From: Picochlorum sp. SENEW3
Lineage: Eukaryota
DNA: 64,000 bases
NCBI GenBank assembly: GCA_034226945.1
Contig: CP120462.1
Coordinates: 248,001 to 312,000, forward strand
Direction: 5' to 3'
Part shown: piece after piece, positions 56,596-59,780 of the stretch
Layout: each line of letters starts with the position of its first letter
Position numbering within the stretch: position 1 is the first letter of the stretch
Program-made: the position numbers and the translations under genes
Notes under the pieces: generated by a model
The model's input: the letters and a program-made list of their open reading frames with translations, nothing else
The model's database searches: none
What the model was told of the DNA's origin: nothing

Positions 56596-56860
56596 TTTGA
56601 TTTATTTATTCTGGCGTTAGGCCACTGCAGGTGCTTGCCGTTCATGTACGATGTCTCTCTACATGGAAAGGATGGATCCATGCGATTTTCAATCTTATAC
56701 AACTATCCTAGGATCCATTATATATTGTGCAATGTCAAAAGAAGAATCACGTAAATGCCTGGCCTAGATGAACCGAGAAATTTGTGAGATTACATGCTTC
56801 AAACAATTTGAAAAGACACTGCCCAAGAATAAAAAAGGACGTTTGAATGAGGATGCCAAC

Positions 56861-57757
56861 TCAAGCACATTGAAGAGCTGTATCGATACTATTTGCTATA
56901 TCTTGCACGTCAAAAGAAAAATTTCTCAAGGCACTGCCATTTTGAGAACTCTCCGATGCGTTCTTTGCATGATTTGCAATCCAAGATTTTAATTTTTTCA
57001 TATATGGCCAGACATTGAAGAATTTGTGCCGGCCACCAAGTTCATTCACAAAGAGGCGCTTGCTCTCTGCCTTGGAAGAAGGCAGATCTTCTATCAGATG
57101 CCAACCAAACGCTCCGATTTCTCCTCTAACATGTGGAGCGAACAACGTATCTTCTTGGACACCTTGGACTATAAATAATTTAGTTGCTTGGTCTCCAAGT
57201 GTCAATTGAATGTAGTGTTTTTTCACCAATTTATCTGTGATATCGAATCCAGTCTCCTCCAAAACTTCTCTGATTGCACATTCTTCGTCAGTCTCATTAA
57301 GAGACAGCTTGCCCTTGGGAAATCCCCAGCCAGACCCTTCCTTGAAACCTCGAACCAGGAGGCATTTTTTCATTTTCGGATCCAACAGGATTGCACCACG
57401 CACAGGAACTGTTCTCTTGTACTCATTGAAAGCTGTATATATCTGCTCTAAAGACCCACGAAAGGGTTCTAAACCAGGGCATTTTTCGAAAATGAGACCA
57501 GTAAACTGTTTCAACCCAAGAGACCGAAGACCATACTTGTGACGAACGTGGTCTTCATAGTGCCACCATGCCTGTTCCACTGAGAATAGAAGTCGCTCAA
57601 AGGACCTGTAATATCCAATATCAAAACGAATGTGAAATGAACTGCCGTATGGGAATCACGAATGAAAACGGCACACGCACTCTAACTCTGTTGCTGGAAG
57701 TGACAAAATAAAACGAACACAAAGATCGTCCAGAAGATCCGGAGAAGGATCTGCCAT
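56861..57757 (-). CDS. DCP2: mRNA decapping enzyme Dcp2 (intron 57606-57680)
   Basis: Box A LLDDLCVRFIL..P..ELE|SFERLLFSVEQAWWHYED and Nudix box WGFPKGK...E.DEECAIREVLEETG. Confidence 0.95.
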
Positions 57758-58061
57758 AACTATATAACTATATGGATATTATATTGTAATTTTGCAGAAC
57801 AAGAGTCGTGAAACATCATCATGAATGATCCCAGGTCTCATGAGACGAGTGCGAGGGACGACCATCACGGAATGGTGGCTTGCCTTCTGGTGCTGTGGCA
57901 GCTGACATGGAGTATTATGTATGCCAACATGCTTTTCGTTCCATAATGCCCTCATTTCGCTGGCGCTGTGCGACGGTACGGCGAAAATGGGGTATTCCAT
58001 ATGATCAAATACTACAGGAAATTCACCCCTGACACCTCTTTGATTCTTTCAAAGGCAGTGT

Positions 58062-58180
58062 AGCTGGTGACGAAAGTCGCGTAGGTTCGAATCCTGCAGG
58101 CAGCGACGTAACAGTTGCAAAAGTGATTTCGTCCGATTGGACCGCTGCTTTGGCCGAGTGGTTAAGGCGCCAGCCTGCTA
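58062..58180 (+). tRNA. trnS-GCU: Circularly permuted tRNA-Ser(GCU): 3' half 58062-58105, 38-nt spacer, 5' half 58144-58180
   Basis: Joining 5' half + 3' half gives an 81-nt cloverleaf: acceptor GCTGCTT/AGGCAGC with G73, D arm, anticodon stem CCAGC/GCTGG with loop CTGCTAA, long variable arm GAC-GAAA-GTC, T arm GTAGG-TTCGAAT-CCTGC. Confidence 0.93.
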
Positions 58181-58197
58181 TCATTCCTTTGAATGAC

Positions 58198-58202
58198 TTT
58201 TT
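58198..58202 (+). terminator. Putative Pol III T-run terminator of the permuted tRNA gene
   Basis: TTTTT 17 nt after the end of the 5' half, just past the trailer segment complementary to the leader. Confidence 0.6.
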
Positions 58203-58350
58203 GTACCTTGCCCAGTACTGTTTGTTTGTCTGCGCATGATTTTTTTCTAGATTTTGCAGTGAAGTTTCGGTCAATTGTAAATTGTTGCTCGCTCGCTTCC
58301 CGCAACACAGTCCCACGAGGCGTTCTGGCGCATTAGCCTCACTCGACGCT

Positions 58351-59634
58351 ATGGCCACCAGAAATATTGATACCTCGGTCGATAGCCATCATTATGAGTT
58401 CTTTGGACCAGTGGTTGGGCCTTTGGGAATCATCTTAGGATTGCCCGCTGTGTGTTATGCCCTTGTTTTCCTGTGCCACGCTGAGACATGTTTCAGTCTT
58501 GGCTCGCCGCTGAGGTCTTTGTCGTGGGATTTCAGAATATTCACATGGGAAGCTGCCCTTGTTTTCCTGGGGTGGCTATTGTTCCAAGTGGCTTTGCATT
58601 TAATTCTACCAGGAGAAAAAATCGAAGGAACAAAATTGGCAGATGGCTCAAGGCTGACATACAAGCTGACAGGCCTAAAGAACTTTGTTATAACGGTCAG
58701 TTTAGCGCTTTATTTTGGATTTGTCAGGAATGATTTGAATTTGTCGTGGCTGTATGACAACTATGTCCCGTTAATGACATCTGCGATAGGTTTCTCTCTG
58801 GTGTTCTCTGCCTACTTGTATGCCAGATCATTTGTGCCTGGCAGGCTCCTTGCTTCTGAAGGAAGCTGTTCAGGGAATGTAATTTATGAATTCTTTCTTG
58901 GGCGTGAACTAAATCCTCGTGTTGGATCCTTGGACTTAAAAGAATTCTGTGAACTCTATCCCGGGCTGATTGGCTGGGTAATCCTCAACCTGGGCATGGC
59001 GCACAAGCAGCTTTCAACGACAGGGACAATCTCTGCCCCAATGGTTCTGGTGAACATTTTCCAGGCCATATATGTGTTAGACTCTCTAGTATTTGAGAGA
59101 GCCATTTTGACGACAATGGATATCACCACAGATGGATTTGGCTTTATGTTGGCCTTTGGAGATTTAGCGTGGGTGCCGTTCACGTACTCTCTGCAGACAA
59201 GGATATTGGTGACACGCTCTCCTTCCCTGCCTTGGATAGCTCTGGCTGGTATTATCTGCTTGAAAATACTAGGCTACTTAACATTCCGAGGATCTAATTC
59301 TCAGAAGGACTTGTTTCGTCGAAATCCAAATGATCCTGCTGTAGCACACTTGAGGACTCTGCCAACAGAAAGGGGTACAAAACTGATAACCTCAGGTTGG
59401 TGGGGAGTCTCGAGGCATATAAATTATTTTGGAGACTGGCTGATGGGTGTTGCATGGTGCCTTCCAGCTGGGACGGAATCTGGCATCGTCCCATACTTTT
59501 ATGCCATTTATTTTGCAATTTTATTGGTTCATCGAGAGTTGAGAGACGAAGAGGCATGTAGAAAGAAATACAAGGCTGACTACGACAAGTACTGCAAAAT
59601 CGTACCATATAGAATTGTTCCATTCTTATATTGA
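58351..59634 (+). CDS. ERG24: Delta14-sterol reductase (ERG24/FACKEL family)
   Basis: YEFFGP, FFLGRELNPR, LTTMDITTDGFGFMLAFGDL, RGSNSQKD.FR and GWWGVSRHINYFGD. Confidence 0.93.
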   Translation: MATRNIDTSVDSHHYEFFGPVVGPLGIILGLPAVCYALVFLCHAETCFSLGSPLRSLSWDFRIFTWEAALVFLGWLLFQVALHLILPGEKIEGTKLADGSRLTYKLTGLKNFVITVSLALYFGFVRNDLNLSWLYDNYVPLMTSAIGFSLVFSAYLYARSFVPGRLLASEGSCSGNVIYEFFLGRELNPRVGSLDLKEFCELYPGLIGWVILNLGMAHKQLSTTGTISAPMVLVNIFQAIYVLDSLVFERAILTTMDITTDGFGFMLAFGDLAWVPFTYSLQTRILVTRSPSLPWIALAGIICLKILGYLTFRGSNSQKDLFRRNPNDPAVAHLRTLPTERGTKLITSGWWGVSRHINYFGDWLMGVAWCLPAGTESGIVPYFYAIYFAILLVHRELRDEEACRKKYKADYDKYCKIVPYRIVPFLY

Positions 59635-59780
59635 TAAGCAGCGATGTAAAGGTTTAGCTGTGACAAATGATGATGATTTTTGCTCTTGCCAGTATCGCTC
59701 AAATATTTTGCAGTGGAGGAAGGAGAGCAGAATCTTCAGAAGAGGCTCTGATCTGTTATACGTAAAGGTAATTTATTAAC

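Follow-up and report, generated by a model that had tools for sequence, protein, structure and literature searches.

A probable circularly permuted tRNA-Ser(GCU) gene in the DCP2-ERG24 gap of a trebouxiophyte-like genome

Layout of the DCP2-ERG24 gap and detection of the permuted unit

The window, by which we mean the whole 64-kb stretch of DNA that was analysed, has a GC content of about 44% and carries long uninterrupted ORFs. Two of its genes diverge from a common intergenic gap. On the minus strand lies a gene for a Dcp2-like decapping enzyme (56861..57655, an open frame taken from stop to stop), which matches Pfam DCP2 box A (1.5e-16) and NUDIX (1.9e-15). On the plus strand lies a gene for a delta(14)-sterol reductase of the ERG24 type (58351..59634; Pfam ERG4_ERG24, 2.3e-136), whose sterol reductase family was confirmed by a protein atlas search and which provides the synteny anchor in the metagenome loci L124 and L063 described below. 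These matches agree with an earlier reading made before any database search (the sequence-only reading), which had placed a circularly permuted tRNA gene in a divergent DCP2/ERG24 gap.

Within this gap, two halves of a tRNA gene stand in exchanged order on the plus strand. The 3' half of tRNA-Ser(GCU) (58062..58105, 44 nt; tRNA positions 38-73) comprises the 3' strand of the anticodon stem, the long variable arm, the T arm, the 3' strand of the acceptor stem, and G73. It is followed on the same strand by an intervening sequence between position 73 and position 1 (58106..58143, 38 nt), which has no T run of four or more, and then by the 5' half (58144..58180, 37 nt; positions 1-37, anticodon GCT), comprising the 5' strand of the acceptor stem, the D arm, the 5' strand of the anticodon stem, and the loop through A37. 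The order, strand, and 38-nt spacing of the halves had been claimed by the sequence-only reading, and their coordinates were confirmed by script. When the halves were joined 5' to 3' by these coordinates, ARAGORN called one tRNA-Ser(gct) of 81 nt. In the swapped cloverleaf, the acceptor stem measures 7 bp, the D stem 3 bp, and the anticodon and T stems 5 bp each, the variable arm is long, and position 73 is G, so that the complete serine cloverleaf with a GCU anticodon and a 37/38 junction, as first proposed, was recovered by the ARAGORN call on the swapped halves. CCA is not encoded; the spacer begins with ACG.

The halves are preceded by a leader and upstream block (58029..58061, plus strand) that is invariant among strains and contains an inverted repeat (58036-58043 / 58049-58055). 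The leader strand 58048-58055 (plus) can pair with 58186-58193 of the trailer (58181..58197, plus), and the trailer can alternatively form a hairpin of its own (58181-58186 / 58191-58196). A T5 run at 58198..58202 (plus), 18 nt past the 5' half, is the likely RNA polymerase III terminator; no T run of four or more occurs in the leader, the halves, or the spacer. In ordinary tRNA genes, the internal promoter boxes sit in the D-arm and T-loop regions. Here the T-loop region (58084..58094, plus) and the D-arm region (58151..58161, plus), both read from the sequence, are presumably the B-box and A-box regions, respectively, and the B-box region is upstream of the A-box region, the inverse of the order in a normal tRNA gene. 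Inspection of the window sequence by eye found no clear TATA-like element upstream, and L124 carries AT-rich sequence some 55 nt upstream. Of the 197 serine codons in four long ORFs of the window, 60 are AGC or AGT, and therefore the cell needs a GCU anticodon.

Conventional searches returned nothing at this locus. ARAGORN found no tRNA in the untouched 64-kb window, and Rfam gave no match over the whole window at the gathering score and none, half-tRNA matches included, at E<=10 over 57900-58350. Standard scans thus miss the permuted Ser(GCU) gene, as had been anticipated for genes of this kind. To detect permuted genes, we joined each 260-nt chunk head to tail with a second copy of itself and searched the product on both strands by ARAGORN with introns allowed, because a permuted gene reads as an intron-containing gene in a doubled chunk. 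The real window gave four joint-spanning calls (three Ser(gct) and one mis-registered Tyr(gta)), all from overlapping chunks of the tRNA-Ser(GCU) locus. The same scan gave no call in the reversed window and none in three dinucleotide shuffles. We conclude that the permuted Ser(GCU) locus, the sole such call in 64 kb, is not a chance match.

Conservation among strains and related algae

The interval 56800-59700 is present, wholly or partly, in 20 public runs from nine studies, in all cases as contigs. We compared 57850-58400 among four runs from four other studies, with the likely source run left out. X10 record 1 and X13 record 4 span the entire 551 nt; X3 record 6 extends from 57961 to 58400 and X9 record 12 from 58024 to 58238. 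Over the permuted unit, no joints within the contigs were reported in X3, X9, X10, or X13, and the order of 3' half, spacer, and 5' half is the same in the contigs of all four runs. None of the contigs has the 5' half joined to the 3' half, an outcome that is neutral with regard to expression. The sequence-only reading had named misassembly as a finding that would speak against it; because unbroken contigs of four independent studies keep the permuted order, the locus is not misassembled. Metagenome contigs of two further species (see below) keep this order too, and we regard an assembly artefact with the halves in the wrong order as next to impossible.

The contigs differ from the window at 26 variable sites and by one 1-nt gap. 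Eleven of the sites lie at 57928-58028, none at 58029-58186, and the remainder at 58187-58358; the last sites before the invariant block are 58025, 58027, and 58028, and the next is 58187. In the unit 58062-58180, which was predefined by the boundaries of the earlier reading, 0 of 119 positions were variable vs 25 of 374 in the remaining intergenic stretch (Fisher P=0.0008). The wider invariant block of 158 nt, whose boundaries were chosen after seeing the data, gave P=4.7e-5. At 58187, all four runs carry C>T, which turns G-C into G-U in the possible leader/trailer helix and keeps the pairing. On the basis of the 0/119 vs 25/374 variable positions, the permuted unit looks selected. The most variable intergenic spot among strains is a T7 run with its neighbours (58234-58247), where nine variable sites and the 1-nt gap fall within 14 nt.

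Metagenome contigs were scanned with a pattern in which a Ser-type D arm comes no more than about 80 nt after a T loop; 58084..58094 represents the first block of the pattern, and 58151..58161 lies within the second. At least 129 stretches, containing 133 matches, were obtained. Among the 133 matches listed, 118 overlapped conventional tRNA calls and were set aside as ordinary tandem tRNA arrays, and 15 gave joint-spanning calls in the doubled-chunk test. Three of these (L128, L010, L068) were discarded as duplication artefacts or overlaps with conventional genes, which leaves 12 loci among the matches listed. The junction was located by a fixed rule: a loop motif ending with A37, an upstream A with a complementary 5-nt strand, and a T loop at the right distance. 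Permuted Ser(GCU) genes among the matches listed were L124, L063, L049, and L037 (identical to L129). Together with the window, there are five distinct genes, whose spacers measure 38 (window), 38, 58, 8, and 15 nt. Every one of them has 7/7 acceptor pairs, is broken at 37/38, and has T as the first trailer base; the 5' half always ends at the loop base A37, and the 3' half opens with A38 followed by the stem strand. A T run past the 5' half is found in four of the five, at +8 to +32, and L049 has none within 120 nt past its 5' half. The ARAGORN labels for L063, Thr(ggt), and for L037/L129, Cys(gca), were rejected in favour of the Ser(GCU) assignment of the fixed rule, since ARAGORN had placed the 'intron' a few bases off.

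The scan also brought up other permuted candidates without an overlapping conventional call (L004, L042/L116, L093, L036/L115, and L027). Among them are Ser(CGA), Ser(AGA), and Ser(UGA) genes, whose spacers measure 38 nt, 12 and 15 nt, and about 30 nt, respectively; L027 is an unclear case. These further serine candidates span several lineages, given that their GC content ranges from 40% to 60%. Separately, the runs X3, X10, and X9 contain matches to 58079-58097 and 58151-58173 on another contig, which belong to a class II tRNA gene in conventional order. This gene agrees with the permuted one in its D and T arms, differs from it in the acceptor stem and in having A73, and is followed by a T5 run. 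The distance from its position 8 to position 65 is about 101 nt, which suggests that about 35 nt are inserted, probably as an intron. X9 record 14 matches 58149-58181 and represents a second locus, in which 33 nt of the 5' half recur with 3 mismatches, the number expected for a UCN-serine anticodon. It diverges right past position 37+1, beginning with a small hairpin, which would make it a further serine tRNA gene broken at 37/38, either by an intron or through permutation.

Two of the metagenome loci share the position of the gene in the window. The permuted gene of L124 and that of L063 are each followed closely by the start of an ERG24 homologue, oriented as in the window (tblastn identities of 87% over 30 aa in L124 and 53% over 96 aa in L063). 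The ERG24 interval of related algae, which the sequence-only reading had marked out for comparison, thus holds, in these two, the same permuted gene directly upstream of ERG24. The L063 ERG24 fragment equals the protein P0005 (100% over 90 aa), which is 71% identical to the window ERG24, and on this ground L063 belongs to another species within the same broad group. Between the window and L124, both halves are 100% identical, the spacer 95% (36/38), the last 30 nt of the leader 87%, and the flanks 47-65%. Between the window and L063, the 3' half is 84% and the 5' half 92% identical, and the spacer, leader, and trailer 40-55%. The 3' half of L063 is 44 nt long, as in the window, and its differences are compensatory; its 58-nt spacer is unalignable.

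We next consider covariation in the stems. The five contiguous permuted units aligned cleanly, and the permuted cloverleaf remains a nested structure. We counted 20 stem pairs, with omission of the variable arm, where L037 has one extra base. All 100 of the 100 stem cells in the five permuted Ser(GCU) genes hold standard pairs, and 11 of the 20 stem pairs are changed on both sides among the genes. None of 500 shuffles reached any of five covariation measures, and sliding the partners by 1-3 columns lowered the pairing to 25-47%. An all-against-all count of the sequences gave 12 compensatory pairs. The double changes are mostly in the stems formed between the two halves, namely 4/5 pairs of the anticodon stem and 6/7 pairs of the acceptor stem. 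Pairing of the anticodon stem is partly built in, because the selection rule demanded a complementary anticodon stem; the acceptor and T stems were not demanded by it. Between the window and the syntenic L063, three anticodon-stem pairs are changed on both sides, the complementary strand in L063 lies at exactly the expected distance, and the variable-arm stem changes from GAC/GTC in the window to GTA/TAC in L063.

These comparisons bear on whether the locus could be dead and unexpressed as a tRNA, with its 3' half left over from one of two tandem tRNA-Ser(GCU) genes and its 5' half from the next, while a conventional gene elsewhere supplies the tRNA. Tandem duplication is indeed the published origin model for permuted genes in the available text of Soma 2014 (PMC3978253). 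Decay, however, would not leave 119 nt invariant beside varying flanks, nor would a remnant persist at the same place across species with an ERG24 identity of only 71%, and it would not be expected to acquire compensatory changes in its anticodon and acceptor stems. The sequence-only reading had itself named remnants of two tandem copies as a finding against function. Such leftovers of the missing halves proved to be absent from the flanks of all five genes, where 10 of 10 local alignments were at the level of shuffles. We consider a dead remnant highly improbable. The claim of a functional permuted gene in a trebouxiophyte-like genome is supported by comparative evidence, that is, by strain invariance, synteny, and compensatory changes.

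Proposed maturation pathway and folding at the junction

We propose, with a probability of roughly 0.88 and from comparative sequence evidence, that 58062-58180 is a working circularly permuted nuclear tRNA-Ser(GCU) gene of type II (37/38), matured via a circular RNA. Every RNA step of the pathway that follows is inferred from published work on other algae. RNA polymerase III would transcribe the leader, the 3' half, the 38-nt spacer, the 5' half, and the trailer as one RNA ending at the T5 run 58198-58202. The halves would fold as a cloverleaf, bringing leader and trailer together at the anticodon loop. The tRNA splicing endonuclease would then cut at 58061|58062 (before A38) and at 58180|58181 (after A37), as at a 37/38 intron, and tRNA ligase would join A37 to A38 to give a circular RNA. 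RNase P and tRNase Z would excise the spacer at positions 1 and 73, and CCA addition would yield an 84-nt tRNA reading AGC and AGU.

A split gene, with separate transcripts of the two halves that are ligated in trans, as known from some archaea, and with no circular intermediate, would give an identical end product, and a second start site in the spacer is compatible with the sequence. We nevertheless judge it very unlikely. Split genes have their halves at separate loci, each with a promoter of its own; here a mere 38 nt on a single strand lie between the halves, this interval lacks a T run, and the T5 run comes only past the 5' half. All five genes retain this order and keep the halves close together (spacers of 8-58 nt), and the algal permuted genes tested so far gave circular intermediates according to the accessible part of Soma 2014 (PMC3978253).

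The proposed maturation through a single precursor would bring the leader and trailer close to each other, and we examined the folding of this region. Eight base pairs can form between 58048-58055 of the leader and 58186-58193 of the trailer. In the window, the best duplex of leader and trailer has -13.7 kcal/mol, a value reached by a fraction of 0.010 of 1000 shuffles. For the relatives, the corresponding fractions were 0.006 (L124), 0.008 (L049), 0.368 (L063), and 0.861 (L037), so that the pairing is above the shuffles in three of the five genes and not in L063 and L037. When the cloverleaf was forced, the lowest of three close energies, -54.0 kcal/mol, was that of separate leader and trailer hairpins; a long leader/trailer helix came next with -52.0 kcal/mol and a bulge-helix-bulge-like fold last with -49.7 kcal/mol, so that all three conformers lie within 4.3 kcal/mol. 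The downstream arm of the leader has two possible partners, because the upstream arm resembles the trailer strand. Both arms of the 7-bp inverted repeat of the leader (58036-58055) are unchanged in L124, and three of the five loop bases differ (58044, 58045, and 58047). Changes confined to the loop fit a conserved hairpin and are compatible with the other fold as well. A helix of 3-5 bp between the anticodon loop and the last leader bases, seen by eye in the five genes, was rejected as not above chance; other 10-mers of the same loci match such a short loop/leader helix in 0.087-0.655 of cases.

It should be mentioned that the T5 run of L124 lies only 8 nt past the 5' half (+8 to +12), within the part of the trailer whose counterpart in the window pairs with the leader. 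Termination by RNA polymerase III at this run would deprive L124 of most of the leader/trailer helix. As a separate observation, X13 record 4 is a single 1898-nt contig with a depth of 155 across the entire DCP2-tRNA-ERG24 gap, and X13 is without the short tRNA-arm matches found in X3, X9, and X10. We guess that X13 is RNA; if it is, the gap is transcribed through, and if it is DNA, the assembly is partial.

In the origin model given in the available text of Soma 2014 (PMC3978253), tandem duplication of an intron-containing gene is followed by loss of the outer halves. Since no leftovers of the outer halves are found beside the five genes, the duplication event is old or its traces are gone. 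Two impressions gained by eye, namely that the leader and trailer are copies of one ancestral intron and that a decayed anticodon arm lies upstream of the leader, were dropped, the local alignments being at the shuffle level in both cases.

Known permuted tRNA genes, host placement, and significance

The accessible part of Soma 2014 (PMC3978253) tabulates 34 permuted tRNA genes. According to the same source, nearly all permuted tRNA genes of green algae are broken at 37/38, with serine tRNAs the commonest, and at 37/38 their precursors carry a relaxed motif, termed 'hBH', which is suited to the eukaryotic endonuclease. The intervening sequences in its Table 1 measure 1-74 bp, and the window layout of 44 + 38 + 37 nt falls within the range published there with respect to both junction and spacer.

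One of the closest known counterparts is in Micromonas pusilla, for which a permuted Ser(GCT) of type II with a 15-bp spacer is listed (Maruyama et al. 2010, as cited in the available text of Soma 2014, PMC3978253). As listed there, it shares with the gene in the window the isoacceptor, the 37/38 junction, the 3' half in first place, and the lack of an intron, and it differs in its 15-nt spacer, compared with 38 nt here, and in its host class, Mamiellophyceae. We infer that L037/L129, with its 15-nt spacer and 67% GC, fits the Micromonas pusilla entry; the acceptor and anticodon stem sequences of L037 differ from those of the window at most pairs. In Auxenochlorella UTEX 250-A, the tRNAscan-SE set was incomplete, and permuted genes were then found, as described in excerpts of Craig et al. 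2025 (PMC12636532). The resemblance to the present case is that of a trebouxiophyte of Chlorellales with genes missed by a standard scan; the example in Fig. S1, as those excerpts give it, is Pro(UGG), in contrast to Ser(GCU) here. The permuted genes of Cyanidioschyzon merolae have the same kind of layout (Soma et al. 2007, as cited in the available text of Soma 2014, PMC3978253). They provide the experimental basis, which in that account includes a circular intermediate, an aminoacylated product, an upstream promoter, and a downstream T stretch. They differ in belonging to a red alga, in having junctions at four positions, and in the introns of some genes (PMC3978253, same text). Thermofilum pendens likewise encodes the 3' part before the 5' part (accessible part of Chan, Cozen and Lowe 2011, PMC3218864), but it is an archaeon, its junction is at 59/60, and its spacers measure 1-7 nt (PMC3218864; Table 1 of Soma 2014, as accessible).

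The sequence-only reading had named no permuted gene from trebouxiophytes, and the Auxenochlorella report (Craig et al. 2025, PMC12636532, as excerpted) overturns that point. Apart from it, our literature search, with Chlorella and Picochlorum included, found no report of permuted tRNA genes in trebouxiophytes. In their accessible portions, a 2026 review of algal tRNA repertoires names permuted genes only for red algae, Ostreococcus, Bigelowiella, and archaea, and PlantRNA 2.0 only for red algae. The novelty is modest: what is added is a new lineage and a syntenic series, and the type II layout and a permuted Ser(GCT) were already known.

As to the host, the best named relatives of the window ERG24 are those of Micractinium (63%), Chlorella vulgaris (61%), and Auxenochlorella (60%), and in the ERG24 tree the clade of the window joins Chlorella, Micractinium, and Auxenochlorella with moderate support (86/88). 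UPF1 gave the same order, with Micractinium at 65% and Chlorella vulgaris at 64%, then Trebouxia at 59%. The runs that contain the stretch include marine metagenomes. Because ERG24 and UPF1 are nearest to those of Chlorellaceae and because of the marine metagenome runs, the host is likely a marine alga related to Chlorellales. We guess that it may be of the Picochlorum/Nannochloris type.

The locus reveals no new mechanism. Its practical consequence is that automatic annotation of this alga and its relatives will seem to be without the sole tRNA type that reads the AGC/AGU serine codons, an apparent gap that arises because standard tRNA finders miss the permuted gene. The same isoacceptor and the same junction occur in at least three further unrelated-looking genes, beside the conservation at an ERG24 identity of 71%. 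It is conceivable, although we think it doubtful, that a single permutation predated the split between Mamiellophyceae (Micromonas pusilla) and the Chlorellales type, was kept for hundreds of millions of years, and provides the sole AGY decoder in the marine clade. If the gene were old and inherited in this way, and the sole AGY decoder, the circular-RNA pathway would be essential in the marine clade. A marine lineage related to Chlorellales joins the few organisms in which permuted tRNA genes are known, and the locus is a rare case in which one permuted gene can be traced at a single chromosomal place, upstream of ERG24, across several species. With this syntenic series and its compensatory changes, the age and origin of green-algal tRNA permutation therefore become testable.
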